This document shows positions 1-34,845 of a stretch of 34,845 nt of DNA, piece by piece (the first letter of the stretch is position 1; each line of letters opens with the position of its first letter). Source of the stretch: Psammoneis japonica (taxonomy: Eukaryota). Location of the stretch: NCBI GenBank assembly GCA_008632985.1, contig QPGO01000136.1, forward strand, positions 186,001-220,845. The letters are read 5' to 3'. Below the pieces are notes generated by a model, which worked only from the letters and a program-made list of their open reading frames with translations, was not told the DNA's origin and searched no databases. A program made the position numbers and the translations under genes.

Positions 1-2
1 TC

Positions 3-2502: not shown

Positions 2503-2863
2503 GGACGCTGCTTCGTACTAGTACGAAACGTGGAGTTTGGCACCGCTCACAGCCTGCCCTAGTGTAAACGCCGGGATGGCGGCCATCAGTAGCGACCAAG
2601 GCTCGGGACAGTTTGTGGAAATGAGGACGTAGAGAGCGAGTGAGTGCCGCTTAGCGATGCTCGCAGGCGGGGCGACCGCTTTATACATTTCAGAGAAAAA
2701 CTGTTGCTTCTCATCCTGTTGCCAGAGAAAGCAATTTTGATTAAAGTAACAACTTCTTCTTTTTTTTTTTAAATAACACCAAGCAAATCAGTTGTTCTCG
2801 TGTAGCTTACTTTCATTAGTTGCTTCGCTCGTCGCGCAAACTCCAACAACAACAGCATGATAG

Positions 2864-4078
2864 TTAATCTTCCCACCCCATTGTTCCGTTGATGGTCACT
2901 GCATGCATGCCTGCATTGTGGTTGACAAGACAGGGAGTACAGCTGCATTCTTTGCAACGCGTACCATCTTGTTGAATGGGATACATGCCATTGAGAAACC
3001 CATCGATGCCTGCTCGGTCCCATCCTGGATAGCAACGACACGACGTGTGCATGGGGATTTGTTCCTCGTGAAACTCGGGATGAAACCGTTCAAACAAGTA
3101 CAGCGCCACGCGAAAGGGTAATTGGTCGTTGATGACTTTTCTGTTCTTGGTTGCGACATTGTTGTAAATGTGCTCGCTGACAAGAGGAACAAAGTGACAA
3201 AAGGTATGAACCAACTGCCGATGAAAGTTAAACAAGATGGTGCCCGTGTTGCGATCTCCAAAGTACTGCCAATCCGTGAGAACATTCTTGTCGCCCGGAA
3301 TCCATTGCTCGGGACCACCACTCCCAAAGGGATACTGATCCAGTCCAATCGCAAGATCCACAATGTTTGTCATGGGCATGGCCCACAGTCTGTCGCTAAA
3401 GGGCCTTGACAGGGCAAAGAGTTTCTCGAAGCCAGGACAAGGATAGGCATCCGAATCCAAAACAATGGTTTGTTTGTAGGGCGCAAAAATATAACTGCTC
3501 AGCGATTTGAGCCAAAAATTGGATGATCCCTGTTCCAGCAAGGTATGATTGTCATTGCCCTTGTAAAGACCCGACTTGGTTGCAATCACATCATCAAACA
3601 CGGTGCCGTTGGCCCATAGGCGGCACGCGTCGGGATGTTGTGGGATTCTTGTTGTTCCTTGACACTTTTGCAAAATATCCAAATGATCAGGAGACGTCAT
3701 GAGAGCCAGCTTGATATCGGTGCGATCGCCAAGTATCTTTCGAATTCGACGACCATTCTGAAGGGCCTTGATGGTGTATCGGTCAAACTTGCCTTCGGTT
3801 GGTCCAATCACCACTCCCAAATTACCACGAGTGTGAGAGGATTTGAAATCCGCTGCACTGCGTCTTTCGGCCTCTTTAAGAATATCCAAATACACAGAAT
3901 AGACACCGTATCCCGGGGATGATTCTTTGTCAGCCTCGTCGGTTCCGCCTTTTTCTACCTCGTCTAACTTTCCTCCAACTTGTGGACAAGACATTATGTT
4001 CATATTCAGGACAGTTATGAAAACAGCAAACACCAAGAAAAGGATTGCCTTGCAGCCGACAAAGTTTTTCATAGTCAT
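2864..4078 (-). CDS. Putative GT-A fold (nucleotide-diphospho-sugar) glycosyltransferase, type II membrane protein
   Basis: Intact 404 aa ORF with an N-terminal TM anchor (AILFLVFAVFITVL), a DxD motif in APYKQTIVLDSDAYPC, then RNTGTILF and NDQLPFRVALY motifs. Confidence 0.7.
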   Translation of the reverse strand: MTMKNFVGCKAILFLVFAVFITVLNMNIMSCPQVGGKLDEVEKGGTDEADKESSPGYGVYSVYLDILKEAERRSAADFKSSHTRGNLGVVIGPTEGKFDRYTIKALQNGRRIRKILGDRTDIKLALMTSPDHLDILQKCQGTTRIPQHPDACRLWANGTVFDDVIATKSGLYKGNDNHTLLEQGSSNFWLKSLSSYIFAPYKQTIVLDSDAYPCPGFEKLFALSRPFSDRLWAMPMTNIVDLAIGLDQYPFGSGGPEQWIPGDKNVLTDWQYFGDRNTGTILFNFHRQLVHTFCHFVPLVSEHIYNNVATKNRKVINDQLPFRVALYLFERFHPEFHEEQIPMHTSCRCYPGWDRAGIDGFLNGMYPIQQDGTRCKECSCTPCLVNHNAGMHAVTINGTMGWED

Positions 4079-4619
4079 TTTCTTCTTTTTGAGTCACGTG
4101 TCTAAGTAGTACCGGTGTAGTGTATACACAAGTTAGCTTCTTCTTCTTCTTCTTGATGTTTTGTGCGATTCGGCTGTGCGTGTCAAATCACAAAGAGATG
4201 CTGACCTAGAACTCCAGAGTAGAGAAAGGAGAGACGTTAGTACTTAGTAGCGCGGGTATTACTATCTCGAAAAACAACCCTTGCAATCAATAAAGAGTAG
4301 TTTGCGACATGTAAGGCCGAAACGACAGCGCAACAGCCGAAAAGTTTGACGAAAAACAAAAATCCTCACAACATCACTGAAACAGCGGACCATCGAAAGG
4401 GCTCGTCTTTTGCTTCATATTATCACCCAATCGCAGCAGCCTCACCTTCGTCTTCACACGGACGGTTCGATTCACATGCACAAACAAGAAACCATAGATA
4501 GAGTGAAGAGTGAAGGTCGTCAGCAAGTCGTCATGTTCACTTTATGTGCAGCAATGCAGCCGCGCGGTTGGTTTTTCAGGTCAGTTATGCTTTCGGTCTT
4601 TTTATTTTTTATTTTTTTT

Positions 4620-5449
4620 TTGAAGCAAATGCATCTTTCATTACACGGCATGGACAGAACATCAGCACATTGTGTCTCAAAGCCAATCAATTGTGGGGAT
4701 CTCTTCCTGTTGAACTGGGTCTCCTTCCAAGCTCCTTTGGTCTGGAAGTCCCAGATGGATTTGCAATGCTTGCGTTTGCTCTTGTCATCATGGACTCACT
4801 CTGCTCAGTCTCATGGTGCACTGGAGTCTCGCCAGTTTGACCCATGCTGACCACAGCTTTGGTGTCATTGGATCAATCTCAGGAACTCCCATCAGAATTG
4901 GGGTCACTCACTGGCCTGGGTGGGTGGAGATTTTTTTTTCATCTTTTTGCATGTCGTTGTTTGCGACTTCTGCCTCTGTCATTTGCCTGGCTGCTCACTT
5001 TGTGTTTGGTGTTTTTTTTTGCGCCGCTTTGCTTCATCAACGTCCAGCTCGTTTGTTCCTTCACCACAATGACATCTCAGGAACCATTCCAACAGAAATT
5101 AGGTTGCTTGGAAATTTGAGCAAGTGCCTGCAATTCAAAAATGGGGCATTCATTCCTTGACTTGCAACCTGTTTTGACTGTTGTGGTTTGTGTGTGGCTC
5201 CAACATGCAGCTGCTTTGACACTGGGTGGCAGTGTGCTTGCAGGGACCATTTCTTCAACATTTGGCACCATGACAAAGTTGGGTGAGAACAAGGAAAAAA
5301 TGCTGTGGCATTTGATGGGTGATGTTTCCTCTCTTCTTGTCTTGTGTCACCTTTTCTCCATCAGAGCATTTTTGCGCCTTGCCACAAATTCATTCACAGG
5401 GGTGTTTGAATGCTGTCTGAGCTTCATTCAGAAATGTCGCATCTTCTGA
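4620..5449 (+). pseudogene. Decayed intron-containing leucine-rich-repeat gene (plant-specific-type LRRs)
   Basis: LRR fragments in different frames: LCLKANQLWGSLPVELGLL, LPSELGSLTGL, LFLHHNDISGTIPTEIRLLGNL, LTLGGSVLAGTISSTFGTMTKL, FLRLATNSFTG. They are separated by intron-like spacers ending in CAG; the donor at 5120 reads GCAAGT. Confidence 0.75.
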
Positions 5450-6122
5450 TTTGATGTGAACAAGACCATTGCTTTTTGACCCAAGGACATCCCTTGCATT
5501 CTTTGTGTGCCAGGCGTGTGAGTCTCTCAAAAGGTTTCACCCCCAAATGGTGGAGAGCTCAGCAGAGCCCAGCCGCGGATGTCACAGCAAGTTGCGACTC
5601 TGTCGCTCACTCTCTCAAAGCTCACTCAATGAAAGTGACTAGCTAGATCTGTCAAGGGTCACAGCAGCTAAATGCAGCAAGGCAGCTGCTTCTCAGAAGT
5701 GAGAAAACCAGAGACCTGCACATGGCCCGCACGAGGTGTGCGATGAATGCCTGGCAGCTTTGTTGGCCAAAGTCTTCCGAAGTCCTCGCTGTCTGTCTGG
5801 CAATGTCAATCTCTGGAGCTCTCTTTCTCTTGATTCATTTCTAAAAGATGCAACGCTGAATTGGATTGTAGTTCCCTCCAATGCAACGGGGTCCTCAAAG
5901 TCTACCTGTTAATTGAGGGGGCACCAGTTTAGTGTGACAGCCAGACGTTGGAGGGAGAAAAATGAGAATGACGTCAGCAGGGCAGGTGGAGGTTTTCTTC
6001 GATCTTATCTTTGCTGCTGTTTTGGTTTTTTGTTGCGTTGCGTTATTGCTTGTTGCGGGACACGGTTTCCAGTTTGGAGAGTTGCTGTGGCCACATTTGC
6101 GTTCTTAACAACCGTTTCAACA

Positions 6123-8463
6123 ATGAAAGGAAGCTCATTGTGGGCAAACGTCTTTTTGTGCCTTGGTCTAATTAGTCAGCAAACCATGTCGTTTGTTCCT
6201 TCCTTTTTGATGAAACGGGCAGCTGGTCGAGCCATAGGCGCCGCATCTGCTGCTGCTTCTCTGAATCCAGCGACGACACCTAGGAGTGCATCTGCAGCCA
6301 CATGTGACGCTCCGACAATAACAAATAATCCACTCTTGCAGAATTGGTCGGCCGAGCCCTTTCATTTACCGCCCTTTTCAAAGATTGAACCACGACATTT
6401 CAAACCTGCTCTCGAGCAATCCATGAAGGAGCACATGGACGATTTGCGTGCCATTGTAAATGATTCAGAAGAAATGATTTCGAGAGCGTCATTGCAGCCT
6501 ACGATCGTGCCGGTGGACTCATGGAGCGGGTCGGATCGGTCTTTGGGAACATGTGCAGCTCCAAAAATACGCCGGATTTGCAAGAAATTCAACTCGAAAT
6601 GTCCCCCATTCTCAGTCGACATTCGAGTGCGTCCTACACGTTGCCCGGTTTGTTTGACAAGATTGACAAGGTATATCAAGAACGGAATAATTTGGATTTG
6701 ACGGACGAACAAGTGCGTCTCGTGGAGCGGATTCGCATGGACTTTGTCCGAGCGGGTGCCAATTTTAGCGAGGAAGCCAAGAAGAGTATACCGAAATCAA
6801 GGCCAAGCTAGCATCCTTGTGCACCGAGTTTCAACAAAACGTTATGAAGGACGAGGAAGAATACGAAATGATTTTGTCGCTAGACGACTTGCAAGGATGT
6901 CCGCAGTCTCTGGTAGAGGCGGCGCGTCAGGCGGCTGAGGAACGCAACAAGGGGGATGACGAGTACGTGATTACTCTCTCGCGGTCGCTCGTGGAACCAT
7001 TCTTGACCTTTGCGGATCGACGTGATTTGCGCCAACAAGCCTTTGAAGCGTGGATGAAAAGAGGTGAAATGCATCCGGATCGTGATAACATCAAGATTGC
7101 GCAAGAGATTTTGAAGCTTCGTCAAGAACAGGCGAAATTGCATGGGTACAAGACGTTTGCTGACTACCAATGTGACGATATGATGGCCAAAACACCCGCC
7201 AATGTCATGGAGTTGTTGGAGAATGTCTGGGATCGTGCCAAAAAGGCTGCAGACAGGGAGCGTGAAGCATTGGAAGAGTACTGTCGTGAATCTGGGACAG
7301 AACTAACAGACGGGATTCAACCGTGGGATTGGAGATATTATGCCGAGAAGGTACGCAAGGCCAAGTATGACTTTGATGAGTCGTTGCTCAAGCCATATCT
7401 GTCTCTGGAGAAAGTTACGGAAGCCGTCATGGCCGTGTCGGGTAATCTATTCGGGTTAAAATATGTCCGTCGACCCGACATTGAAGCCTACCATCCAGAT
7501 GTGGATGTTTATGAAGTTCGAGAAACTCTGGCGGATGGGACGGACAAGCTCGTTTCCATCTTTATCCATGACAACTATGCCCGGCCATACAAATCAAGCG
7601 GAGCATGGATGAGCGAATATCGCACTCAAACGAAAAATCTTGGAGCAGATTTGGACGAGATTGATGGCGTACCCATTGTGTCCAACAATAACAACTTTGC
7701 AAAAGGCAAGGCGACGCTCCTGTCCTTTGACGACGCCCTAACCCTTTTCCACGAGATGGGTCACGGTCATCATGGGATGCTGTCCAACGCAAGCTACAGT
7801 CGCCTGGCGTCCACAAATGTTTTAACCGATTTTGTAGAGCTGCCTTCTCAGCTCCTAGAGAATTGGTTGGAACAACCCGAGGTGCTCAAAAAGTACGCCA
7901 GGCATTATGAAACCGATGAACCAGTTCCGGACGAGTTGCTAGAAAAGCTCAAGGCTGCGAGTCGTTTTAATGAAGGGTTTGCGACAATCGAGTACACTTC
8001 CTGCGCACTCTTGGATATGAAAATGCATCAGATCGAAGATTATTCAGACTTTGACCTAGTCGAGTTTGAGCGAAAGGAGCTTGAACGCTTGGGTATGCCA
8101 CAAGGCATAGTGATGAGACAGTGAGTAGTGCATTGAGTCCTGTTTGGCTAGTGCACCCGTATCTCCTCACATCGACCCTGTACTCTGTGACGTTGCAGCC
8201 GACCTGCGCATTTCCAGCATCTCTTCAGTGGTTCTCATTATGCAGCAGGATATTACGTCTATCTATGGGCGGATGTTCTTGCTGCTGATGCGTTTGCGGC
8301 ATTCACTGAGACAGGTGATGTATTCAGCAAGGAGACGGCTAAGAAGGTCCGACTACACATTTATTCATCTGGCAACACGGTTGCACCGGACGAACTTTTT
8401 CGTCGCTTCCGAGGACGTGATCCTGAGATTCAGTTTGTCCTTGAGAAGAAGGGACTACTGTAG
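6123..8463 (+). CDS. M3A metallopeptidase (peptidyl-dipeptidase Dcp/oligopeptidase A-like), probably organelle-targeted; exons 6123-8120 and 8199-8463; two 1-nt frameshifts (~6473, ~6782)
   Basis: NNPLL, PPFSKI, QPWDWRYYAEKVR, KSSGAWM, HEXXH motif LFHEMGH and DFVELPSQLLENW. Intron GTGAGT..TTGCAG 8121-8198 joins MRH-RPAHFQHLF, followed by YAAGYYVYLWA and FRGRDP. N-terminus is a signal peptide followed by S-FVP, like a diatom bipartite presequence. Confidence 0.92.
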
Positions 8464-12604: not shown

Positions 12605-12962
12605 AAACACTATACCGGTACGAGCATGTGTGCCCCCTTTTCTCAGTAGAGGAGATTGTTTATAATTCTTCTCTCTAGCTTCTGCGTCTGGTAGCAATTT
12701 ACAAAAGTATCTTTGTTTAGAGTTGATTAGTAAGGTGTTTGTGGTGGCCGTGGTTTACTTCACGTCTCTATCGGCGGCAACTCGTCATGGTTTTGTCTCA
12801 TCGCGTTGGGTGGCAGTTGGCAGTGGCGATGAATCAACTACATCCTTCAGTCTTGAATAATATATTTTTAAGAAGGTGGTCCAGAGATTGCTTGGTACAT
12901 TTTTCACGTAGAAACTACCCGAGACCAAGCACGCGTACATTCCTACACAGACAGGGCCTTTA

Positions 12963-15900
12963 TACGAAGAAGCCATCCGGGCTGCAGCCCCTGATGTCGA
13001 CTCCCTCCGCGATCTCATCGCCTCGTGGAACCCACCGAAGCCCGTGCCCCGCTAACTTGCCCCTTCTGCTCCTGGTCTCCTTCTTCCATCGATGCATCAT
13101 CCCTTCCCACCACCACACGCAGCCACCTTCGCCAGGAGCATCCCCGTCTCTCCCTTTCTCATGTGCCTGCGTCCTTCTTTGACACCGCTGGTTTGCACGT
13201 CTGCAGGCATTGCAATCACAGCCAACACACCTGCCCAACCGCCGTCCACCTTCGCAATCACTTGCAGAACAAGCATTTTGCTCCTTGCTCCTCCCTCAAC
13301 ACTGACATTGTTCTCTCGTCCCTCCACAATCCAGGTGACTGGGGCTCCTCGCACAATGGCTCCATGCTCTCGCACCCGATCCTCCGCCTTTCCGAGCTTC
13401 CTGTCGCCGCAAGCTCTCATCCTCCGCCCGCAAGGAACTCTACTCTGCCCTTCATCATGAGATGCGCTGGGTGCTGGCTGCCTCCCAGCCCCTGTCTGAC
13501 CCTTCCCATCTCATTCCTACGTGGCAACGTGACTCTGCGCCCTTCTGGAAGCTTCCTCCACTCTTTGAAGCTCTCATTCTTGCTCCTGTTCCGTCACGCT
13601 CCAAATTTGGCCCTGCCATTGCCTCCTGCTTGTCCCTCTTCCACCATGGCTGCATTCGCCAACTCTGCCAAGAAGCCTGCTCCCACACGCCATGCCTCTC
13701 TTCATCTTCCCCCGACTTTTCTGCTTCCACCTGTTGCCACTCCGCTCAAGTCTGCGCCGATGAAGACAATTTCACTTGGCCTGCTCCAAGCTCACCTCCG
13801 CGCTTCCCACTGCTGCCGTCACTCCTGAATGCCTCCCTGACATCCTCAAGCTCCACCCTCCTCGTCTGCATCCCTCCGACCTCCCTGATCCCCCTTCAAC
13901 TTGCTCGGCCTCCTCCCTTCATGACGAGCCTGTTGAACTCTCCTCCGATGCTCTTCTTTCTGCTCTCTCCAAATGTAAACCTGGGACTGCCGCTGGCGTC
14001 TTCGCTGATTCTACTGACCTCTTCAAGTCCTGCGCCCTCTGTTCCACCAAAACTCTGACAGGAGTTGCTCAATGTCCCCATTTGCCATCCTTCCGTGAGC
14101 TTGTTCTTCTCCTTCTTCATGGCTCCATTCCTCCCTCCATCCATTCCTTGTTTGCTTCCAACTGCTTTGTTGCTCTTCATAAAGATGCCAGTGACCTCAA
14201 CAAGCTTTGCCCCATTGGAGTCAGCGCTGCTCTCCGTCGCATTGCAGGCTCCGTCGTCATGACTCTCTTTGGATCTGAGTTCACTGAATGTCTCCTCCCA
14301 GACGGCCAATTCGGCATTGGTGTCAAAGGTGGCCTCGACTATCTCATTCACTCTGCTCTTATCAACATTGAACAATGTCTTTCTTCTGCTGACTCTGCCA
14401 AGGTTCTTCTTCTTCTCAACCTTGTCAACATGTTCAACGAAGCATCCCGAGACGCCTGTCAACACGTTCTCACCTCCATCGCTGCCTTCCATCCTCTGCT
14501 TCCTTTTTTTGACCTTCTGTGTCAAAGTTCCAATGCTTGCTGGCATCGCCGACCCGATTCTTCCTGGGGCTCCTTTCTTCAAGAAGAGGGATTTGCTCAA
14601 GGATGCCCTCTCGGTCCTGTCTTGCCAGTCTAGCCCTCTCTCTGGTTCTTCGTCCAATCAACCAAGAGCTCCGAGAACAAATCCCTGGCCGATCCTCTGT
14701 CTCAGTTGGCTCCTGCATTGATGATGCTCATGCTTTTCTTCCCCATTCCGTGCTCCCGTGGTTCCTCGAACGCTTCTCCGCCCTCGGCGCTCCCTGCGGG
14801 ATCTCCCTCAACCTCCGTAAAACCAAAAACCTCACCTCCATTGCAGGTGTAGCCCCATCCCCACTCTCCCCCCTTCCCGTGCCGATCCCCTCCGTGCTGC
14901 TCCCTCCTTCTTAAACCCTGCCAATGACCCCTCCTGCAACCCCGAACTCACCTCTGGTGTTTGCTTCCTCGGACAGCCCCTTGGCTCTCATGACTTGCCA
15001 GCTCCTTCCTTTCGGATGCTTCCTCTGCTCTCTCCGATAAAGTCGATGTGCTTCTCACCCGTCTTCATGATAAACAAACCCAAGCTCAACTCTTCAAACA
15101 CTGTTTTGTTCCATCCTCTGCCCACCTCTTGGGGCTGACTTCCATTGCAACTTCGACCCCGACAATCCTCCCGACCCCTTCCTCTGGACTTCTCCGTTTC
15201 AAGACTTCCTCCTCACCGTTGCTCACCGCTTTCTTTACTGCGCCACATCCTACGCCGCTCCTTTTCCTGATCATTCCATTGCCATCGCTTTCCTCCCTGC
15301 CTCCTTGGGCGGGTTTGGTCTTCGGGATCCAACAGCTGCTGCCATTCCTTCCTTTTTGGCATCACTCCTTCGCTCATTCCGCTTTGCTTCGCACGGTGTC
15401 AGCCTGCCGTCTGGTGCTTCTGTTTTCCTTCCGCGCTGCTTTCGGCTCTCCCTGTCTTCCTGGTCCAACCCTTGCTCTTCCCTGCGACTCTGTGTGCTCT
15501 TCCGTCGCTGTGCTCCCGTTCTTGCTTCTGCCTCCACCCTTTCCTCTTCTTCCTTGGCTGTTCTGGTTAAATCGGCCGCTCTTCCTGGCCTGGCTCGCCG
15601 TCTTTACCATGAACATCAACAGCAAGCAGTTGCCTCCATTCTTGCTAACTCATCTTACGATGTGCAATCTTCGCTGTCTTCATTGCTGTCTCCGCTTACA
15701 AGCCTTCCTCTTCATTCCTTCTCCCGTCACTTCCCAAGCTCCCGTCTTTCTTCGGACACCTGCGCCATTGCTGCTCTTCGCAAGCTTCGCCTCCCCGTCC
15801 TCCCTCCGTCCCTTGTCAACACTCCCTGTCCCTGTGGCCATGCAATCCTTGATGCTTGTGGTGACCATGCCTTTTCTTGCCACCGTGCCCACAAGTCCAA

Positions 15901-16776
15901 GCTTTCCAATGGTCTCCGCGACACTGTTTTCATCCTAGCCCAAACCCTGGGACCCCTTGCAGAGTTCTGTTGCTCCCCCAATGACGTTCATCTCGAGCCT
16001 GCCAACCTGCTCCCCACCCGCCCGCTTCTCCATCCCGCCAATGTCGGCATTTCAATTCCCCCTCCTGCCTCCCTTTCTGCTCCTTCCCCCGTCATCATTA
16101 CATTGCAGTGGACGTCACCATCCCCAAAGCTCCTTCTCGCCCTCCTCCAGGTCTGCCTGCTCCCTCTTCTCCTGTTTTAACTGAGGCACACCACTGAGCG
16201 CGAGATTGAAGTTCCTTGGCCCCTCTGCTTCCTCTGCTGATGGATCCCTTGTTGTTTCTTTGCTCAACAATGATGGCATCTTCCTGCTCCCCTTCACCGT
16301 CGATCACCTTGGTGGTCTCGGCTGCTTTGCTCACCGCTTGCTCTTTGGCCCTGCGCCTTCTTCCATCTGCTCTCAGCCCAAGCCACCCTGGTCCTCTTCC
16401 TCTGACTTTCGTCACTCCGTTGCCTCCCACTCCGCCTTCCTCTGTGCTTTGTCATCTCCGTCTGCAATCCTTCCGTCTGCTGACTTCGCATGGCGTCGCC
16501 TGTCCACCGATCACTTTGGGAGCACCTGCCGCACAGCCTCCCCATCCCAGTGGGCCACCCAAACCCTTGGCCACAACGTCGTTCTTCACCTTTCTACGCA
16601 CATCCTCCGATTCACTTCCTCCCTCCCTGCTCCCTCCTCACCTGCACCTTCCTCTGAACGCCCTTTGTCCTGTGTCCTTTGGCCCTTATACTCTGCCGTC
16701 ACTGCAGCCACCTCCGTGCCTCCCTCTGCTGTTCCCTTCCGCTCTACACAGGCTCTCTTGATTTTCTGTTTTAAAA
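12963..16776 (+). mobile_element. 5'-truncated, degenerate CRE-clade non-LTR retrotransposon (copy 1)
   Basis: Colinear with 30962-34810. Two C2H2 fingers (CPFC..HLRQEH, CRHC..HLQNKH), RT motifs (PIGV..LRRI, QFGIGVKGG, NMFN, GFAQGCPLGP, [Y>C]IDD), LPASLGGFGL, CCHC knuckle CPCG..DHAFSC and RLE-like VDVT...LPFTVDHLGGLG. Ends at TTTTAAAA; many frameshifts. Confidence 0.92.
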
Positions 16777-17421
16777 CAGAAAGCATGGCACTCCGCATCA
16801 GCGACTCATGATGACACCACTTGACGACCATGCATCAAAATGGCGTCTTCCGAGTCTTTCTGCAGCTCCTCTTTCACTCACCCGATTGCTCCAAAAGGGC
16901 CAGGGAAAGCTCTTGTGCTTCTGTTGTGATGGAATGGTGTGAACACAAGTTGTTCTTTTCATTCCAAAATCTCAGAACACAGTGCAACAGATTGTCAAGG
17001 TGCACCTGCACATTGGCTGTGCTGTCAGGCAAATCAACGCCATTTGCTGTTCACTCCAGAACAACAAAGGAGACGTGGTGCCCCAATGAATGCACTCTGC
17101 ACTCACTTGATGAATTGCAAAGATGACAACTCTTGTTGCTGAAACTCCTCTTGAGGACCGAGCCACTTTTGGGACTCATCACAATGACCCATTTTTGTCG
17201 TCCCGTCCTTCACCCTCTAAATTTGTTGTGTTGGCCAACAAATGGGGCAAATGAGTCACAAATTTCTGGGTCATAAACTGCCTTGCAGCCAAAAGACGTG
17301 ATTCACACCTTCAGAACTGCCATGATGCACTGGTCTGCCAAATCAAACTCCGCATCAAAATGGATGGACAGTCAGGGAGAACTCTTGTCAAAACTGCACG
17401 ATGCAATGAAATGATGTTTGG

Positions 17422-17914
17422 GGTGGCACGGGCACAAAAGTGGGCCAGATTCCATGCATGCAGAGCTTGGCATGTTTTCCACACAAATCACCAAAGTCAG
17501 CTTGCCAACTTGAGCCATCTCCCGGATGATGGAAACTTGGACATTTCACACAAAAAAGTGTTTGGACCACTTGGTTGCACTGCCCTCAACTTGTTCATTG
17601 AGAGAAGTTGCAAGTTTTCATGTGTTCTTTGTTTGGTGTGGCTCTTTAAAACCCAGTTGTTGTGATTTTAGCACCTTTCTGATTGGATTTGTTGCATGTC
17701 CTCAGAAACCTGTGAAAACTTGTGACTTCTCTTCACAAACAAGTCAAGGGGAGTGCAGCTGAGCAGTCCAAACACTTTGTCATGTGAAATGTCCAAGTTT
17801 CCATTGTCTGGGAGAGGGTTCAAGTTGGCAAGCCAACTTTGGCAATTTGTGTAGAAAACATGCCAAGCTCTGCGTGCACAGAATCTGGCCCACTTTTGTG
17901 CCTCCTGCACCACC
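17422..17914. mobile_element. Foldback/MITE-like element: ~200 bp inverted arms (17422-17622 and 17711-17914) around a ~90 bp spacer
   Basis: ggcacaaaagtgggccagattc...cagagcttggcatgttttc...ggaaacttggacatttcaca...aagttttca is matched by its reverse complement. No credible coding capacity; no TSD seen. Confidence 0.8.
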
Positions 17915-19979
17915 GCGAGATTGACTCCGAGTCACGAATCTTGAATCCTGCATCATGACCCGCTTGACTCACTCAAAGTTCTTGAAAGAGTTTGAAATTG
18001 CTGCAGCTGCTGCACTGCAGAGATTTTGACCCCCACCAGCCAGTGCCATGAAGTGCAAGAGAGAGAAGATCATTGTCGGCCTGTCAATCTTTGAACCAAT
18101 GTGTCACGAGCACACCCTGGGTGGGTGTTGTTCATGACAGCACACACTTGAAAAAGGGCTGACTGTCCCAGTTTTGTTTTGCCACAGAATTCCCAAAATT
18201 CCCCGGGATTGCCACCTTTCACCACGACTTTCCATGGAAGCAAAAGTGGAGCCGCACATGGTCAACAAAACATGGCAGACTGATTGACGATGTTTGTTCT
18301 TCCCTTTGACCTGTCTTGTGCGCAGAATGCAGTGTGTCATTTTTTCTTCTTGTGTCATGTGGTCACAAATGCAAACCACAATGGCTCTAGAGCAAAGGCG
18401 CCAGGGCAAAAACAGAGCCGCACATGAGCAATGTCAACATGTGTGATTCAATGGCTGAGTTCATTCTTCCCTTGCTCTGCCACAAGGGGCCACTTTGTGT
18501 CAATTTGTTGATGCATCTGTCATGGTCATTGGTGGCAGAGTGTGCTGGCTGGCTGGACAATGTGTCAAAAAGCACACCCGCCCACATGAAATGCAGCGAG
18601 AACTGCCGCGCTGCACTCATTTTTTGTTCCTTCCTCTGACCCCTTTCAGTCATTCCTTCCCACTGAATTGCCTTCATTTCCTGGGTGCTCCCCCAAAGGG
18701 CAAGGCAATTCCCCCTCACCCTCACCATTTTGGGGAATCCCCAAATGGGCACAAAGCCAAACCAAGCTGGATGTTCGTGGAGCACCTTCATTTCACGGGC
18801 AAGTGCAAGCGACGGACAAAATTCAGAGTCAACTCTCCAGTGGGACCCATGGCAACTGCAGCATCAGTCAACTTGGCACCCCCAAATTTTCTCTGGAGCA
18901 GCACACAAGTTCACATTGGAAAAACCCAAGCAGCGCGGTGTGGGAAAACACGCGACGGTGGTTGCATTGCGAGACATCCATCGCTGATGCTGTGCACAGC
19001 ACAGTGACATGAAAGACAACTTGCCAGTGCTGTGTCATCTGCAGGTGGAAACAGTGCCACGCCCTGCATGATCTTTGGTCAATGAAGCCAAAAAATGCGT
19101 GAAAAGTGTGCAACAATTTTGAGGCCATTGCGGTTGACAGAGGAGCACCCAAGTTCGCATTGAAAACACTCAAGGGCAGCATCAAACACTTGCACAAAAG
19201 AGGTTTGGTTGCACAGGGAGGCTTCAGAGGCGATGCATGATTGCAGAGGTCAGTGTGGGCTCACAACCCAACAGAGACTCCAGTGTGTGGTGAAGCGACC
19301 TTTTCCACTGACACTCCCCCAGTTTGGGACTTTTGGGCTTGCGCACTGGTCAAAAGTTGGCCGGATCAGTCTGGGTTGACCGTTGACCACTTGGCATTTC
19401 TGATTGGCGCAATCACAAATTGCTCTTGTGGGAGAAAGAATTCTTGATCCGGGGGGTGGGCAATGACCACAAGAACTGCATGTTGTCGGCACTCCGCACT
19501 TTGTTGCTGCTCCTCCACAGTGCTGTAGAGTCGTAAAAGCGGCTTACGATCATGTGACTTGCCGGCATGCCCTCGATTTGTCACAGTGAAAATTGTCCAG
19601 TTCACACACAATGCCAAATTCTTGATGTCACAAAAGGAATCAGTGTGTGGGAAAGAATTTCAAAAGCAGACAAAAATGCCAATTCCACATCAGATTGCTC
19701 AGTCGCACACAACATTCATCTGGAAGCTTGCCAATTTGAAAGTCTTTCAAATGTCCATTGTAACAATTGTCATCGTGATTCTGGTCATTAAAAAGTGTTG
19801 TGACAAAGAGTCTCTCGCAGCATTCCACTGTTCTCCCCCAAGACATTTTCACTTGGCACCCTGCCACTGCAACCCTCACACAAAACGAAAAACAAGAATC
19901 GAGTCTTTAGAGCCACTGTTGAGTCTCATCCACTGAACACTCACAAAACAGGATCAAGCCAAATCTCAAACAAGAAAAG

Positions 19980-22170
19980 ATGAAAATCATTGGCAAGGGT
20001 GTTTCTCTCTTTCTTGCTTTTGCTCTTTGCGATGCTGCTGGTGCGTGGCATTGCTGCATGGCAAATCGTGCTTGGGCGACAGCGCCTTTTCGATGAGACA
20101 AGAGCGGCCAACAAATTTGCATCTTTTTTGTCTTTGTTCTTCCTCAGACCTGACGGCAAAGCCGGGACTCAGGGATGGTGCTTCTCCAGAGGCAAGCAAC
20201 AACACCGTTCCCCACAGCGATCATTCCCTTTCGTCGGTCGTTCTGACAACTTCTGCTCATTCGGTGACAACTTTCACATGTGTTCTCGCAGGACGTCGTC
20301 AACCCTAACGCTGAAGCCGAGTCCGACAGGTTGCTCGCTGTAAGTGGATAAAAGATTTCATGTCGTTTAGTTGAACAAACTTTTTTCGTCATTTTCTAAA
20401 ACATCCGAATTGCTCAAACGTCTTTCAGCATGCTTTCCTGCTGAGGGGGCGTGCTGTGAAACTAAACGTGGTCATCTGAAATGCACAGTCACACAGCAAC
20501 GCGACTGTCAAGGTCGAGGTGGCCACTGCATTGGAGATGGAAGCAGCTGCAGACCAAACAAGTGTGCAAGCATCCCAAGTCCCATGCCACCAACTACGCC
20601 GAGTCCTCCGACACCAACGATGGATGGAAAGGAGGGAGCCTGCTGCTTGAGGTTCCGGCAGGTCTTGTCTTGATGAAAAAGAGTTGCTGTCTCCCTGTTT
20701 TAACCCCAATGCTTTGCCACCTTGCTTTGTGCAAATCACATTTTGCATTTACAGGGATCGATGCTTTGTTGCTTCGGAAGACATGTGCAAGTTTAAGAAC
20801 GGAATTTACCGTGGGGACGGCACGGCAAGTCTCGTCACTGTTTTGAGCACAGAATGAACATGCATGTGCAGATCTTGCAATGACCCATTTCGTTCTTTCC
20901 TCTTGTTTTCAGACCTGCATTTCCGGTGGCTGTAGGACCAGGGGTGCATGTTGCTTGGGTTCTGGTGAATGCCTCCCCTTTGAAAAGAAAAACACGTGCC
21001 AAAGGGCACTCGGTGGCACCTTCCAAGGAGTCGGCACAACTTGTCAAGACGGAGTGTGCCGTGTTGCCCCTCCTTTTGGTCCTGGTGCTCCGCCATCTGG
21101 TCCTGGTGTGCCTCCGTCTGGACCTGGTGCTCCTCCTTCCGGTCCTGGCACTCCGCCGTCTGGTCCTGGAACTCCGCCGTCTGGTCCTGGAACTCTGCCT
21201 GTCCGGTCCTGGTGCTCCTCCGTCTGGTCCTGGCACTCCCCCTTCTGGCCCGGGCACTCCTCCTTCACCCACGCCACCCACTTGGCAAGAGGGAGCTTGC
21301 TGCTTGCCCTTTGGAAACAGAACTGCGATGTTCTTTCCAAAAAAGACTGCACTCGTCAGGGTGGAGCACACCTCGGAGACGGCAAGACGTGCACCACTGC
21401 AAGATGCCCAAGGCAAGGAGCCTGTTGTTGTGACAATGGCACTTGTGGCAGGACGACATTGTCTGGATGCGACAATGGAGTCTTTCAGGGTCGCGGTGGC
21501 GAATGCAAAGACGAGAATGGCTCAACCATTTGTCCAATGCCAGCTCCCACTCCATCTCCCACGCCTGCCTCCCACACCTGCTCCTGCGCCTTCTCCCATG
21601 GCTGCTCCCACACCTGCTCTGACGGGAGCATGCTGCATGCCGTTCAGACGCAACATGTGCGAAGTTCTCTCCAGTGCAGACTGCACTCTTGAAGGAGGAG
21701 CACACCAGGGAGATAATCAGGCGTGCCAAAGGACACGCTGTCCAAGGTGTGGAGCTTGCTGCCTTGAAGATGGCGATTGCTTCTTGAGCACCTTGGCTGG
21801 TTGCAACAATGGCAAAGTCTTTCAGGGTCGCGGCACTGAATGCCATGATGGCACCGGTGCGCCTGTGTGTCCGGCGGCCCCACCCACGGTTGAAGTGGGC
21901 CGCTGCTGCCTTCCCAACGGCGATTGCGACGCAACCACCCCTGCAGAATGCAATGATCAGTTCGGAGTGTGTCAGGGAGTTGGTGCTGCGTGCGGTGGTT
22001 CCGATGATCATTGCAGCGAAACAGGAAGTTGCTGTGTGGATTTCAAGCCATTCTGTGTTGATGTCAATGTTGCGGTTTGCAAGAAGAAGCGAGGCGACTT
22101 CCAGGAAGACACCACATGCTTTGACACCTGTTGGTGTCCCGGTGAGGCCTGGGCTCGGGGATGCCAGTGA
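19980..22170 (+). pseudogene. Decayed multi-exon gene for a secreted protein with nine Cys-rich GACC modules and Pro-rich linkers
   Basis: Signal peptide MKIIGKGVSLFLAFALCDAA from ATG 19980; intron-like spacers (GTAAGT at 20340; donors at 20658 and 20825 read GCAGGT and GCAAGT). Repeated G(A/R/S)CC-x-C-x-C-x-G-x-(Y/F)xGxGxxC modules; at least three frameshifts after 21200. Confidence 0.75.
21078..21267 (+). repeat. Coding minisatellite, 9 x 21 bp, encoding GPG(A/V/T)PPS
   Basis: Units such as ggtcctggtgctccgccatct with third-position variation; unit 6 carries a 1-nt insertion. Confidence 0.92.
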
Positions 22171-23313
22171 CCGAAATCGCAACATGTGTTTTAGCGAGGA
22201 GACATGTGATGTGAGAACAAGCCAGTGATGTTGTGCCACCATGACACCTCTGCACAATCACACCTGTCCGAGCCCCTCCGCAATGAGAAGCAAACAGGGC
22301 TTGGGTCCAAGTTAAAAAAAAACAGTGTCCATGTTTTGTGAACATTGCACAAGCAGTGGGTGTCCGGCAGCAGTTTCAAGGCCTCAAATGTTCATTGGTG
22401 GTGACTGACATGTTCTCAGAGACCTCGAACAATCCACTCATGACGACATGTGGCATGGTGGAGCATGACAGTGCCAATTCAAGACCCCAGAATAATTCTT
22501 CCAACTGTCTTGGAAGTCACCATGAGCGGCCGCCGGCCACAAGGGTTGCGCACTTCCTTCATCCAAAATGACGACCTCGAGACAGCGACAGCCACAAGCG
22601 GCAAAAGTCTCCACTTGCTCAAACACTCTCGTGTGTCGCAATCATGTCCCAAACAGCACACAAAAAGTCTTTCGGCCGAACAGTTTGAATGCAATCAATC
22701 GGACATGAGCACAAGACAGTGAAAGGAAATCCAAAAACTTCTCCATCAGGACCACCAGCAGCTTGCCCTGATCAACCGCCAAGGCAACACATCGCATTGG
22801 AGCTGAGGAAAAGAAATTTCGGCCAGGACAAACTCGTCATTCACAAATGGCATGGGAACTAAATTGGAGAGCCTGTGCTCAGCAAGTGCACACAGGTGCT
22901 GGTCACTGCATCCGACAATCGCAGAACAGCGTGCGTCCAACCTTCAACAACAAGGAAGGCAGAGTGCAGTCTTGAATGAATGGCTGGAACAAACTTGCAA
23001 CAATGCTCTAAGACAGGTTCGAAATCTGTCTGCATCGCTTGATGAAGATCGTCTGTCGTCTGCCGTGTCGATGCCTGGCGATTTTGCGTCTGTCATGCAA
23101 TCATTCAGAAAAGACTGTCGTCCCATGGCACCCCATGGCACCCCTTCGCAAGTGGAGAATGTGGTTTTAATGTCATGGTGATGTGATGTTCACGTCATGG
23201 ATTTTTCATGCGTTGTCATGTCACTTGATTTTGCATTTGCACACAAATGCCAACAGCAACAGGAAAAATCCTGAACCACACTCTTTTCTCCCTGAATCTC
23301 AAGGACGAGTCGT

Positions 23314-23930
23314 CTGGAACCGACCACAGGCAAAGTCATTTTTTGACCTTTCTCGCAACCACGAAAAAAGCACGTGTCACATCGGATCAACCATGATGAT
23401 GCCTTGCGACTCTTCCCCAATGCCTTCCCAGGACACCGTTCCCACTGGCACTGTTGACAATGGCGCTGATGCAACAGGCAATGTCATCACTTCTGTTCTG
23501 AGTGGCCTGATGTGTGCAAAACAAGATGCTGCAAACTGACGCTGTTGTCTCCATGCTCCACTGCCTCCCACAGATGCTGTCACAAATGCCAGCACCGCCC
23601 CTGTGTTTCTTTTGACTGGCATGCCCGACACTGTTGCTCACTCCCTCAGTGCAACAGGTGCTGTTGATGCTGTCATTGTCTTGTGCCAACAACATCTGCT
23701 GTCAATTGCTGCAAACTGACACTGCCATTTCCATGCTGCGCTGTCTCCAACAGACAATGTTGCAAGTGCCAATGCTGCACCTGCACTTGGCTTCACCAGC
23801 ATGCCCGACACTGTTGCTCCTGCCATCACTGCATCATGTTGCAGGCGCGCTGTTGATGCTGATCCACAATCAAGTGCAACCAACTCACACACTGTTTTCC
23901 ATTCCCGCCCCACTGCCTCCCACAGATGCC
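23314..23930 (+). repeat. Left inverted arm with three ~170-180 bp internal subrepeats
   Basis: cctcccacaga-like core at ~23564, ~23743 and ~23915; translates as DSSPMP..DT..SVL.GLM.AK.DA.N...PPTDAVTNAS like the right arm. Confidence 0.8.
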
Positions 23931-26479
23931 ATCATGAGCACCAAGATGTCAATGTCTCCCCCATCATCCCCAACCCCTCCCAATGCTGCTGCACCCCACA
24001 TGGGCGGACGGTTGCCCACTTGCTCTGGCAGTTGTCACCCAAATGCAACTGCCGTGTGATCCAGAAGACATCATTTTTTTTTCTCCTGATCCCACGCCTG
24101 TTGCGCAGGCTCCAACTTGCAATTGGTCCACTCTGGTTGTCCCCTCTCCTGAACGCATTCCCTCTGAGCATTTGTGTGTTGTTGTTGAAGGCATGGAAGG
24201 GCAGGTTCTCAAGCCATCAGGTTTGCAGCTTTGCACTCAAAACAGAAAACAGAAAATCAAGGAAGAGGCAACATTGGAGCTGGACAAATCCACCTTGCTT
24301 TCTTTTCTTCAAGACCCTGTTGTTGACTCTTCTTTTTCTTCTGGGTCTTTCTTGCCTCCCAATGTTCCTTCATTGATGAGAGAAATGCAACTCTAAATCA
24401 CTGTCCAACAACAAGCAAAAGCAAAATGCTTCCAGTGACTCAGCCGAGCCACCCGTCCCCGTGCAACATCACCTTCAAAAGCATTTTCAGAAAAAGTTGT
24501 TCCCTGAAGTTGATTGGGCATTGTTGGATTTGAACCAACTCCTTGCACACCATCACAGTCATTTGATTCTGGAGAACATCCTTTGAGTGCCGGTCAGTTC
24601 CAAGATTGTTCTTTTGATTTCTTCTTCCCATGACACTTTTGCACTGACGTGGAAGCCCGTGCTCACTGCCATGTGTGCTGGCTCTCCCTCCATTGCTGTT
24701 TGCACTGGCAAGGAATTCTTCTTCATCATTGAAGCAACCATTTCCAGCCAGGCCCACCAAAAGAAACTGCAAGAAAAAGACTCAACTGCAACAGAACTGG
24801 AGCACCTTTGCACTCGCCAAGGCGGTGGTGCTGTCGTTGTTGCACCGGTGGGCAGTGCATCTGTGTCTTTTGAGGTCAAGCACTGTGACATGTTCCACTC
24901 CTGTGCAACGTTGCACATGTGGGCTGCACTCTCCCGCACAACAACCACATGCGTTTGCTGCTGGGAAAAGTGAAAAACACAAACCATCATGCTGCAATGC
25001 TCAATCGGTGTGTGCAGGAACTGCGGGGCAATGGCCGTGCTGTTCATGTCCTTTGCCACAATGAGTGTGACCCACTTTTAAAGGACAGCAAACTGGGTGC
25101 TCAGCTGGCCCATTGCAAACAAGGTGGCATTTCTGCAGATTGGACTCGGCAGTTGTTTGACATTGGCACAAGCAACACCACGTTAAATGACTTTGTTTCA
25201 TTTGTCAGGGGCTCATGCAAGACTGCCATTTGTTCCTGTTTTGGATGGTTCATGGCTTTGACCTCCCCAATTCTTGATCAGGCTGCTGTTGTGGCAATCA
25301 CTTGGCAGTTTTGCAAAACAATGCCATTCCACTGCATTGCATTGAGCACTTTGTTGAGCTGCGAGGCAAAGAAAAACCTTTCCACCAAACAACAGCTCCT
25401 TCCCATTTGGGATTGGTTTGTTTTGCATGTTTTCATGTCCATCATGCACATCCAAAATTCTCATTCTTTTGCATGATGGTCCTGCCGCAACACTGCTGCC
25501 ATGTGTGGATCATTGGGCTTGACATCGAGATCAAAGCTTTCTGTGTGTTTTGGACAAGCGGCAACACAACAAACGCCATTGCAGAAGACACGTTTGTTTG
25601 CCAACTGTGCAACTGTCATGGACAATGCAAACAAGTCCTTGATTGCTTCTGAAACCTTTGGCGCACCCACATTTGACAATTCTCAGGTGCATCTTTGCCC
25701 CATTGTCATGCCATTCCACATGTTTTGTTTCTGCATTCATGGCACCAACTGTCCATTGATTTCTCATGCTTCTTGAGGTGGTGGAATTGCTTGAGTTTCA
25801 GTGCAACCGCCAGTCCTCCAATGTCGCCAAGACCACCTCTTGAATGTTCATCAAGCCGCATGTCCAGCCCCTTGCCCAACTTTGCATCTTGTCCAACGGC
25901 AATCTCTCCACCTGACTCCATCACTCATGTCAACCAATGCATTCCTTTGCCATGTGGCATGCCCACATGTGAGTCCAACCCTGCTTTGCTTTGTGCTGAT
26001 GCATTGATTGCAGCCTTCCAAACCTCCAATGCATTTCTGGAAGCTGCAGATTCAACTGGCACCCGTGCAGCCCGGCATGCATCAATTGTGTCTCTTGCAA
26101 CTGTGGCACACATGCACCGAAACTGTGTTCCTTGGGTTGGCGCTGCTTTTCTTTTCAGCCCACCTCTGGTGTAGAATCCATTGATCAGATGCAGGTCCAA
26201 CAAAAGCTCACACCCAACTGAGCGGCAAAGGGATTCTGCCACTCCTGCAATTTCTTCCAATGACACGTGAAACACAGGTTTGGTGTGGCACACCTCCACA
26301 TGTGTCCATCTTAATTCCTCCAGTTTCCTGTGAGGATGAGACGACAAGCAAAGGTGCCGGCAAGGTCATGCTTGGTCTGCTTCAGCTGTTTGACATTGTC
26401 AAAGCTGTGTTGGCACACAACAAGGTGTCTCGGGAGAATCTGTGCAAGACGTGGTCCTGTCGGAAGACTGTCAAAAGCA

Positions 26480-28055
26480 TTGGCAGCACAGAGAAAGCAA
26501 GGCTGGAATGGCAAATTGGCATGGAGAGAATCAACAAAGGCGGCAATGTGATGTGCCTTTTGTTCCTTGGTTAGTGTCCCAACAAGAGAGACAATGTCAA
26601 ACAAATGGAAAGCGTCGCTCCAATCCAACCATGTTGACAAGTTTGCCTGAAACGTCTCAATTTTGGTTCAGTGGTTTGAGCAGAAAATGCACTTGTCTGC
26701 ATCAGAACCAGCTGCAAGCAAGGCAGAGAGCATGTTGGAGACAATTGTGAATGGGCAATCACCACAAATGTCACCAAGAATGACACATGATGATGCCTCA
26801 TGTCATCAGGTGATGGCCAATGGCAGTGGTCAATGTTTCTCCCAATCAAATTCTCTGTGGACAAGACAATTGGGTGTGTTGCATGTTGCTGTCATGAGAA
26901 GCAAGGGAATGGAATGCATTGAGTGCACCCACAAAAGAAAGCAATCACGGAGGCCCTGGAATTTGGACCAAAATGACAGGCACAAAAAGATGAATTTTGT
27001 GTCCAAGGCAATCATCCGAAGCAAACCATTGTGCAAAATGCCAAGAAGGAGCTGCAGCAGCACATCATTGGCAACTGTCAACTGAGGCAAGCAAAACAGG
27101 AAAACCGTGCCATGCACTGAAGGTGAAAGCTGCCACATCCAGTCAAAGAACCTTTGCATGTGAGTTGGATTCTTTGAAATCTCATCCAAATGAAAGGCTG
27201 AGACAGGTCCATGTGTTGCTGGCCTTGTTTGGCTCATTGCATTGTTTTGCGGCACTGATCCAAACCAAGGGACAACAGAGGGATGACAGCAAGGATGATG
27301 CCTTGAAGACAAACCCCCACAATGTCACGAACAAGGGATTTGCCACCACCAGTGGGTCAGACAAGCAAGAAAGGATGGATGTTTTGGTTCTGCATTGATG
27401 CAAGGATGCTGCACCCCATGTTTTGCTGCCAAGCATGAGGGTGCTTGCCAAAGACATCAACAGAGATGCCAACACAGGAATTGTGGATGGCGTTGACTGG
27501 CAGTGCAGGGTTGGCATTGACAGCATCTGTGGGAGGTGGTGGGGCAAGAATGGAAAGCAGCGTCAGTTGTTGGCACCACTCAATTGTGGATGTTGTTGGC
27601 ACAACAAAGTGGCAGCATCAACAGCACAACAGCATTGGGCATGCCCATGGACCCCAACGCAGGTGCAGCATTGGCATTTGTGACAGCATCTGTGGGAGGC
27701 GGTTTGGCGAGGAAACAACAGTGTGAGTTGGCGTCATTTAATTGCAGATGTCATTGGCACAAGTCAATGACATGTTGTCAACAGTGCCGGTGACAGCAAT
27801 GGCATGAGCAACAGCATTGGGCATGCCGGTGGACCCCAATGCAGGTGCAGCACTGGCATTTGTGACAGTGTCTGTGGGAGGCGGTTTGGTGAGGAAACAA
27901 CAGCGTGAGTTGGTGGCATCTCGTTTTGCACGCATGAGGCCGTTCAGAACAGAAGCAATGATGCTGCCTGTTGTGCCAGTGTCATTTGCAACAGTGTCAG
28001 CAAGAATGGTGTCCTGCTGCAAAGGCATTGGGGAAGAATCGTGAGACATCAACAT
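26480..28055 (-). pseudogene. RecQ-family (SF2) DNA helicase remnant with repetitive N-terminus
   Basis: Minus strand: Q-motif VFGKHPHAWQ; motif I LLV*PTGGGKSL (PTGGGKS at 27356-27336); motif Ia AVIPLLSLGLDQ; Ib FLFCLPQ; degenerate II LRMIALD; III IPLLLMTATC; IV KCIFCSN; then LVGTLTKEQK..FLCAANA. Stops and frameshifts present; motif VI not seen. Confidence 0.85.
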
Positions 28056-28132
28056 GGTCGAGTGGAGTTGACGCGTGCTTTTTTGTGGTGTGGAAATGGC
28101 CGAAAAAGTGTCTTTGGCTGTTCGGTTCCAGG
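27518..28132 (-). repeat. Right inverted arm with three ~165-180 bp internal subrepeats
   Basis: tctgtgggagg core at ~27526, ~27689 and ~27871; reverse complement aligns to 23314-23930. Confidence 0.8.
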
Positions 28133-29373
28133 CAACTCCAGATTTGTGGGCACCATGGGATGGGAGTTTTTACTTGACGACATGTGCACATTCACAAGAA
28201 CATGAGCACATCCGACTCAACGCATGTGATGTCACAACACATCGCCCACACCCAGCACATCCCATGGGACCACGGGACCATGGGCAGTCACGTGGCGGTC
28301 TCCACTTCAGTGCTTCAGAAGTCAAGTCATGATGGCAGCTTTTCTGCCACAAGAAAAGCATTGCCAGATCGATCAAACCATGGCGGCTCCTCTGTCTGCC
28401 ATGCAATGCAGCAGTCGGTCCATGTTGTACAGCAGTTGCTTTGTGGCAGGGCATCGGGCTTGCACTTTGCGCGTACCGGCACGTACGGTGACTACTCTAC
28501 ATGCCCACCGGTGGAGAGAGGAGCACGAGGTGCGTGCTGGAGCGCGCAGCTGTGGGTGACGAAAACGAAATGAAAACAATGGTAATTCGTGTGGCGATGG
28601 CGTCCCATGATGGATGCAGTGGCTCTTTGCTGCACCTCCCGAAGTGGCCTCCCGACCCTCCGCCATGGCCATCCTTCTTTTTGCGGATCCTTTTCCCTGC
28701 CGTTCTTGCCTTTGCCATCGTCTCCTTTCTTCATTCCCTTTCGGTCACTCCCTTCGCTCCTTTCGCCTGTACATTTCTACGCCCCTTCTACTGGCCCCCA
28801 GTTTCCACGATTGCCAATTGCCCTTCCAACTGCTCACTCCATTGCCCTTCCACTTTTCTTCACTCCCTTTCTTCATCCCAACAACTGCCCCCTGCCATTT
28901 CCCTTTCTGCTCTTCCTCATGCCCTCTCTCCTTCTCTGCCTTGTTCGTTTCTTTTCCCTGTGGCCCCTCTCTGCCCCCTGACCTCTTCCCCATTTCCTCC
29001 TCCAGCAACCCCTTCAATTGCCCCCCTTCCTCCCATGACTCCCTTCGCGCCTTTAGTTGTGACTCCTCTCCTATCGTTCCACATGCCTTTCTATGCCCCT
29101 TTGAACACGATTGCTTCCGCACTCCTCTACAGCTTCCCCTGCCCTTCGGCCCTCTCCACTGCCCCTTTCTCTTCCATGACTCCCTTCGCGCTTCTGCTTG
29201 TGCCTTCCTCCCTGTGTTTCCATGCATCCTCTACGATCATTTGTGTACGATTGCCCACGTCATGCCCTCACCTTCCCTCCTCCTATCTTTCTACACGTTC
29301 TGTGACCTTGTCGCTGTTTTTGGCGATCCGCACACAACAACGACTCTCTGCAACTTTCTCTTCTCGCTTGATC

Positions 29374-34785: not shown

Positions 34786-34845
34786 GCTTCCTTAATCTTC
34801 TATTTTAAAATCATCATCACTATATTCAAACACAAACACCCATGA

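Follow-up and report, generated by a model that had tools for sequence, protein, structure and literature searches.

A nearly TpA-free island over a leucine-rich repeat gene

We analyzed a stretch of 34,845 nucleotides from Psammoneis japonica (assembly GCA_008632985.1, contig QPGO01000136.1, positions 186,001 to 220,845 of the forward strand), hereafter the window, whose own numbering is used throughout. Near its left end lies a five-exon gene for a plant-type leucine-rich repeat (LRR) protein, and over this gene extends an island of about 1 kb in which the dinucleotide TpA is almost absent and CpG is scarce. The island had been pointed out in a preliminary description of this DNA, whose claims are taken up below where the evidence bears on them. 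The gene and the island comprise the following features:

4533..4739, + strand: exon 1, with the start codon, a hydrophobic N-terminus and LRR unit A (ATG at 4544 as assembled, or at 4533 if an extra T after 4579 is real)
4643..5639, no strand: TpA-erased, CpG-poor island, delimited by dinucleotide counts, gap ranking and agreeing read contigs
4857..4919, + strand: exon 2, LRR unit B; 63 nt against the usual 72, with three codons (repeat positions L-S/T-G) gone and N7 replaced by S
5048..5119, + strand: exon 3, LRR unit C, the best kept (LFLHHNDISGTIPTEIRLLGNL); 72 nt; Pfam LRR_1 at E 0.045, below the cut-off
5100..5101, no strand: sole TpA of the island, in the codon pair ATT AGG (Ile-Arg), with Arg at a position that is Gly in 91% of 2346 reference units
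5120..5125, + strand: intron 3 donor GCAAGT, equal to GTAAGT after a TA-to-CA change
5211..5282, + strand: exon 4, LRR unit D; 72 nt, with the near-invariant N7 and P14 both replaced by S
5367..5449, + strand: exon 5 of the gene model, coding for half an LRR unit and a tail rich in Cys, closed by a TGA stop
5640..6000, no strand: right shoulder, partly depleted, with 8 TpA (18.5 expected, P = 0.005) and 10 CpG (18.0 expected, P = 0.03)

By dinucleotide count, TpA sites run through 4603, 4610 and 4642, recur once at 5100, and resume at 5640, 5644 and 5669. The 996 nt of 4644-5639 hold exactly 1 TpA where base composition predicts 65.5 (observed/expected ratio, O/E, 0.02). Measured against the local genic background, defined as positions 1-4643 and 5640-12900 (TA O/E 0.56, CG O/E 0.96), 36.4 TpA would be expected (Poisson P(<=1) = 5.9e-15), and the single site counted by eye in the preliminary description is thus confirmed. 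The sparse CpG that it reported was likewise found: the island has 16, where base composition gives 55.9 (O/E 0.29) and the local background 53.8 (P(<=16) = 1.5e-9). CpA and TpG are in excess (O/E 1.95 and 1.54). Relative to the background the island lacks 35.4 TA and 37.8 CG and has gained 36.3 CA and 28.5 TG, such that the combined TA+CG loss of 73.1 lies near the CA+TG gain of 64.8, and the remaining 12 dinucleotides stay close to background. The two TA-free gaps within the island, of 458 and 540 nt, are the two longest of the 448 gaps in 1-12900, in which the next measures 226 nt and the median 19 nt.

This depletion runs through coding and non-coding sequence. The introns of the LRR gene contain no TpA in 420 nt, and neither do the 190 nt past its stop codon. 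By comparison, TpA occurs 5.0-5.3 times per 100 nt in three non-coding controls from the same window, and 5 times in the 110 nt of an intact PIP5K intron. At the rate of the neighbouring open reading frames (ORFs), 0.095 TpA per codon, 12.2 would be expected in the 127.7 codons of the island; the protein part encoded there has no Tyr, 4 Cys and 3 His, where 4.0, 1.6 and 3.9 are expected. As the erasure takes in exons, introns and 3' flank alike, the loss of TpA is not an effect of coding or codon usage. In 69 bins of 500 nt each, TA O/E rises and falls with CG O/E (Spearman +0.84) and runs counter to CA/TG (-0.81); the co-depletion of CG with TA would fit a silenced or methylated state.

The edges of the island differ. 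TpA had been said to return abruptly on both sides, and this holds for the left edge, where TpA is dense to 4642 and CpG to 4594, whereas the right edge is graded across the shoulder at 5640-6000. Just outside the left edge, at 4300-4642, the 20 CpG are in line with the 17.1 expected, and the 10 TpA fall slightly short of the expected 17.6. With respect to the gene, the TA-free zone begins about 110 nt past the ATG and about 25 nt ahead of the first LRR unit, and ends 190 nt past the stop. A search for terminal repeats or target duplications flanking the island returned short chance-level matches only. Rfam over 3500-6500, a tRNA scan and a tandem-repeat scan gave nothing relevant and marked neither edge of the island, and blastn and tblastx searches of the island against the whole window found no second copy.

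The gene itself was recognized from its LRR-motif stretches, which form exons with AG acceptors separated by phase-1 introns of 117, 128, 91 and 84 nt. When joined, the exons give an open frame of 161 aa closing in TGA, or 165 aa from the ATG at 4533 if the T added by the read contig is counted. The units are tandem 24-residue repeats of the plant-specific type LxxLxLxxNxLxGxIPxxLGxL. A profile of the five exon translations matched 77 PDB sequences at E<=0.01, with plant LRR receptor ectodomains on top (best GSO1, 1.4e-62), and 43,249 proteins at E<=0.001 in a library of 1.84 billion proteins. In single-unit Pfam searches unit C alone reaches LRR_1, below threshold as listed above, and a homologue search with exon 1 (65 aa) among longer proteins gave 25 candidates with none at E<=0.01. 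The splice donor GCAAGT named in the preliminary description is present after exon 3 and matches the TA-to-CA outcome of GTAAGT. The other three donors read GTCTGG, GTGGGT and GTGAGA; none of the four keeps GTA, GTGAGA and GTGGGT are likewise reachable from GTA-type donors, and the intact PIP5K intron in the window begins GTAAGG.

Conserved residues were scored against a reference profile of 2346 units from the 150 best library proteins, a selection by high score that overstates residue invariance. Units B and D no longer have the N7 that is present at 98% in this profile, unit D also lacks P14 (99%), and in unit C an R stands in place of G18 (91%); the three codons missing from unit B correspond to a 9-nt deletion. 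The sole remaining TpA lies at that same consensus Gly (GGN), so that it would most simply be a later G-to-A change and not a survivor. A change of TA to TG or CA cannot create an in-frame stop, since TAA gives TGA or CAA and TAG gives TGG or CAG, and the open LRR frame is for this reason weak evidence of function; the chance of meeting no TGA across 135 codons in such TA-free DNA is about 0.056. On its sequence, the gene is more likely a relic or crippled than a working one. Of the earlier description of a decayed, "dead" LRR gene, the LRR identity stands, and decay is suggested by the lost consensus residues and the deletion; deadness does not follow, as the five exons still join into the open frame of 161 or 165 aa.

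Read contigs, repeat tract and flanking genes

Three DNA runs from one sample and no RNA run are listed, and k-mer contigs of the public run X1 were compared with the window; this run possibly derives from the assembled sample itself and is then not fully independent. The contigs span 30 of 30 bins of 3000-7500 at a depth of 58-62 on the island and 57.5-58 on its flanks, an equality which indicates that the island is single copy at the k-mer level. Inside the island and away from contig ends there are 5 clean differences (4819 C>A, 4891 A>G, 5023 G>A, 5050 C>G and 5376 G>A), of which none creates a TpA and 3 are CpG/CpA. It had been proposed that short reads might restore the TA sites and so refute the island, but the contigs keep the TA-free state. 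A separate contig of 540 nt (depth 41.8) aligns to 5053-5122 only, with 10 differences; judged by this alignment it is a diverged paralogous LRR exon of 70 nt located elsewhere in the genome. Beyond that exon, no paralogue of the island was found at >=85% likeness among the contigs, a search that old diverged duplicates could escape. The gene had been presented as a member of a multicopy family, and with depth the same as the flanks and one diverged 70-nt exon as sole paralogue this was not borne out. Relative to the window, the read contigs carry 1-nt insertions at 4579, 5727, 6468-6469 and 6781-6783.

The signature of the island recurs on a larger scale further along the window, where it coincides with repeats:

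12957..28200, no strand: TpA-poor, CpG-poor repeat tract with the dinucleotide signature of the island; left edge at the start of a 3.85-kb repeat

Between 17000 and 28000 the tract has lost 709.1 TA+CG and gained 741.3 CA+TG. Directly after the PIP5K gene, TpA density falls at 12963, within 10 nt of the repeat start at 12957; here the repeat element sets the limit of the depletion. The repeat, of at least 3.85 kb, occurs twice (12957-16810 and 30956-34845, the second reaching the end of the window); the copies lie about 18,038 nt apart and are 88.7% identical, with 436 mismatches over 3847 aligned positions. Possible identities are long terminal repeats and two tandem copies of an element of 18 kb. 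TpA numbers 31 in the first copy and 61 in the second, with 22 common to both and about 166 expected in each. TA in the less depleted second copy faces CA or TG in the first at 32 sites, and the opposite is seen at 6 sites. Among adjacent double differences, CA against TG makes up 38 of 89 and the next class 8, as would result from hits on opposite strands, in the two copies, of what was once a TA or CG. On the + strand of the repeat pair, T/C differences are about twice as frequent as A/G and concentrate in TYC, CYC and GYC contexts, a second pattern with a strand bias beside the TA and CG classes.

Pfam searches on 65 ORFs (13 + 52, with 7 of the 13 inside the 13-34.8 kb tract) found no mobile-element domain and one sub-threshold GIDA match, and the ORFs of the 3.85-kb repeat copies contained no Pfam domain. 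Several further structures lie in the TpA-free part of the tract. A 21-nt tandem repeat at 21053-21287 (8 overlapping 66-nt copies) would read Pro/Gly/Ser-rich on one strand, with no family found. An inverted repeat joins 23364-23667 to 27778-28084 (arms of about 240 nt, 74-79% complementary, about 4.1 kb apart), and a hairpin joins 17431-17620 to 17713-17902 (190-nt arms, 84% complementary, 92-nt spacer); both may be remnants of DNA transposons or foldback elements. Beside the fully erased tract, 28200-34845 forms an intermediate zone (TA O/E 0.13-0.64, CG O/E 0.6-0.9) and is a candidate place to see the process half-way.

The island itself lies between two genes of ordinary composition:

2864..4093, - strand: left neighbour, an ORF of 409 aa, open, in which TpA and CpG are normal; no Pfam family
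6124..8460, + strand: right neighbour, an intronless M3 peptidase gene, its frame continuous once the read contigs mend two 1-nt indels

The insertions at about 6468 and 6781 restore the continuous M3 peptidase frame and thereby point to residual 1-nt indel errors in the assembly. The island had been described as flanked by two intact genes; the 409-aa ORF is open and the M3 peptidase frame continuous in the read contigs. As a lead only, language-model look-alikes of the left ORF are nucleotide-diphospho-sugar transferase-like proteins. The closest relative of the M3 peptidase is 72% identical, and two relatives come from marine eukaryote transcriptomes. Among 79 metagenome loci with M3 peptidase relatives, the 10 closest contain no LRR unit and the 9 closest have no neighbour gene in common with the window; without a shared LRR unit or neighbour gene these loci cannot polarise the island.

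Origin of the island

The depletion over about 1 kb between two unaffected genes, with a loss of TA+CG matched by a gain of CA+TG, upholds the earlier notion of a sharply local mutational process. We consider it likely that the island is the in-situ footprint of a TpA-to-TpG/CpA hypermutation, accompanied by CpG decay, which also erased the 13-28 kb tract. A local process would have turned essentially every TpA into TpG or CpA (A:T to G:C at 5'-TA-3', on either strand) across the body of the LRR gene, and a CpG-to-TpG/CpA decay of the kind typical for methylated DNA would have gone along with the loss of TpA. Within the island the direction would be from TA to CA/TG; the chemistry could be deamination of adenine to inosine by a deaminase preferring a 5' T. 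Such a process might be aimed by silenced or methylated chromatin, or by small RNA or paralogue homology, with the LRR gene handled like the nearby transposon DNA. The gene was probably crippled through missense and splice-site changes, not through stop codons. It seems that a rare targeted DNA-editing process is able to strike one host gene with gene-sized precision.

Several observations weigh against this reading. Inside the island no TA-to-CA/TG change is directly observed, and the most evident departures from the LRR consensus (N7 to S, P14 to S and G18 to R) are ordinary transitions and not TpA or CpG changes. When CA and TG in the LRR exons were reversed to TA and scored on the 2346-unit profile, there was no enrichment: a gain of more than 1 bit was obtained for 3 of the 30 nonsynonymous TA-restoring changes against 14 of the 112 other transitions. 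The test has low power, and it is uninformative because, of the 62 candidate sites, only about 12 should once have been TpA. With single-copy depth and no similarity to the rest of the window, nothing marks the island as a repeat. In the repeat pair, 240 of the 436 mismatches are other transitions (with T/C 257 against A/G 114), so that TpA editing is not the sole process in this DNA.

The same composition would arise if the LRR segment had been mutated elsewhere, in a TpA-erased repeat or a heterochromatic paralogue, and then brought to its present place by segmental duplication or gene conversion. The sharp left edge fits such an import, as does the beginning of the TA-free zone about 25 nt ahead of the first LRR unit and not at the start codon, and the 540-nt contig matching 5053-5122 attests a paralogous LRR exon elsewhere in the genome. 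Against import, the reading frame opens at an ATG in normal sequence and continues without a break, inside exon 1, into the erased DNA. The right shoulder, graded over about 350 nt and depleted in both TpA and CpG, resembles leakage of an in-situ process. Neither a paralogue at >=85% likeness over the rest of the island among the X1 contigs nor terminal repeats and target duplications around it were found, and we regard import as unlikely. A transcription-coupled editing of a host receptor gene, proposed by analogy with the similarly shaped immunoglobulin hypermutation by AID, would have a deaminase act on the transcribed LRR gene from about 100-200 nt downstream of the promoter, with its action fading past the 3' end, and may diversify the LRR receptor instead of silencing it. 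It would account for the onset about 110 nt past the ATG and the graded shoulder after the stop, in a gene that is single copy by depth and whose spliced frame is still open; the 72-nt one-repeat exons with phase-1 introns form an architecture friendly to shuffling, and repetitive LRR exons are known in ROCO genes of Ectocarpus (PMC3341825). Against it, introns and 3' flank are erased to saturation, as fully as exons, the CpG decay points to silencing, and 15 kb of repeat DNA lacking recognisable genes bears the same signature. The open frame is expected in any case, as no stops are made and the absence of TGA in 135 codons has the probability given above, and near-invariant LRR residues are lost; such editing is improbable.

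Selection or a compositional quirk, by which TpA would be avoided for RNA stability, codon usage or LRR coding, finds some ground in the under-representation of TpA across the window, normal genes included (O/E 0.56). Against it, the depletion is total and does not differ between exons, introns and 3' flank, and a gain of CA+TG and a loss of CpG go with it. The neighbouring genes and the intact intron retain TpA, and Tyr, which is the commonest residue at repeat position 3 of the reference LRR units (16%), is absent from the island; we hold this explanation to be very improbable. An artefact of assembly or polishing is scarcely credible. Indel errors of 1 nt do occur in the window when it is set against the read contigs (4579, 5727, ~6468 and ~6781), but k-mer contigs from a run possibly of the assembled sample show the island too, at normal depth, and of their 5 substitutions there none restores TA.

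Known mutators and the meaning of the footprint

Repeat-induced point mutation (RIP), found in Neurospora and other ascomycetes, converts CpA to TpA, enriches TpA, creates stop codons and needs duplicated sequence. RIP and the process at the island are alike as dinucleotide-specific transition mutators that act on defined segments and both strands, and RIP disables genes and transposons in association with methylation. Its chemistry is the opposite, however, of a composition with TpA at 0.02, CpA at 1.95 and TpG at 1.54, and its targets are duplicated whereas the island is single copy by depth. In methylated DNA, CpG decays through deamination of 5-methylcytosine. The island resembles such DNA in its CpG O/E of 0.29, its excess of TpG and CpA and the 3 of 5 contig differences that are CpG/CpA; this decay accounts for about half of the CA+TG gain and for none of the TpA loss. 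Somatic deamination of cytosine diversifies receptors, as in AID-driven somatic hypermutation and in the LRR-based variable lymphocyte receptors of lampreys, which are built with cytidine deaminases. The island, where the change would be of a deaminase type, shares with these systems a confinement to about 1 kb of one gene, a sharp 5' limit past the start, a fading 3' limit and an LRR target. These systems differ in being somatic, directed at cytosine and diversifying, whereas the island is inherited, shows saturated loss of TpA including the introns, and looks like inactivation.

The units of the island gene agree with plant-specific LRR proteins in the pattern LxLxxNxLxGxIPxELGxLxxL, and with the repetitive-exon LRR genes of Ectocarpus (PMC3341825) in having one repeat per exon. 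Compared with either, the gene has five units, has no kinase, ROC-COR or other domain, and has lost several near-invariant residues.

The closest known system is that of Bigelowiella natans, for which a TpA-specific hypermutation of integrated giant-virus and virophage DNA, with de novo TpA-to-TpG/CpA mutations in mutation-accumulation lines, is described in a preprint (Mettrop et al., bioRxiv 10.64898/2026.01.13.699255). As given there, the targets are viral insertions of 25-186 kb that still have 3.3% TpA, and the depleted coding sequences include host-type domains. TpA is lost and CpA+TpG gained in both organisms, within sharply bounded parts of a nuclear genome that is otherwise normal, and both strands are struck in B. 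natans as the signature of the island likewise indicates. In B. natans mutations were caught arising, whereas at the island the end state alone is seen, with one TpA left. The B. natans targets as there described are large, viral and unsaturated, and the island is a saturated 1-kb stretch of a single-copy host LRR gene with added CpG decay, in another lineage. Being a single-copy, intron-bearing, plant-type LRR gene in which no mobile-element feature was found, the island does not belong to the foreign or mobile DNA targeted there. In our literature searches, TpA-specific nuclear hypermutation was found only in this 2026 preprint on integrated viruses of a chlorarachniophyte, and none was found described for diatoms.

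New here is a TpA-erasure footprint on a host gene of another alga, resolved to about 1 kb. A footprint of this size with unaffected genes a few hundred bases away rules out chromosome position and simple spreading from repeat tracts, and leaves chromatin state, small RNA, paralogue homology and transcription as candidates for how the process is aimed. Unlike fungal RIP, the damage would be done by missense and donor changes (GTAAGT to GCAAGT), never by new stops, and would run together with CpG decay. There is a small chance, by analogy with AID, that the editor is no repeat detector and can be aimed at one transcription unit of a single-copy host gene, setting in about 100 nt inside and fading past the 3' end. 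If so, editing of LRR genes could silence, or even diversify, members of a receptor family, and the edited genes would stay translatable, as no stops arise. Small gene-sized islands of this kind may serve as natural test objects for methylome, small-RNA and mutation-accumulation work.

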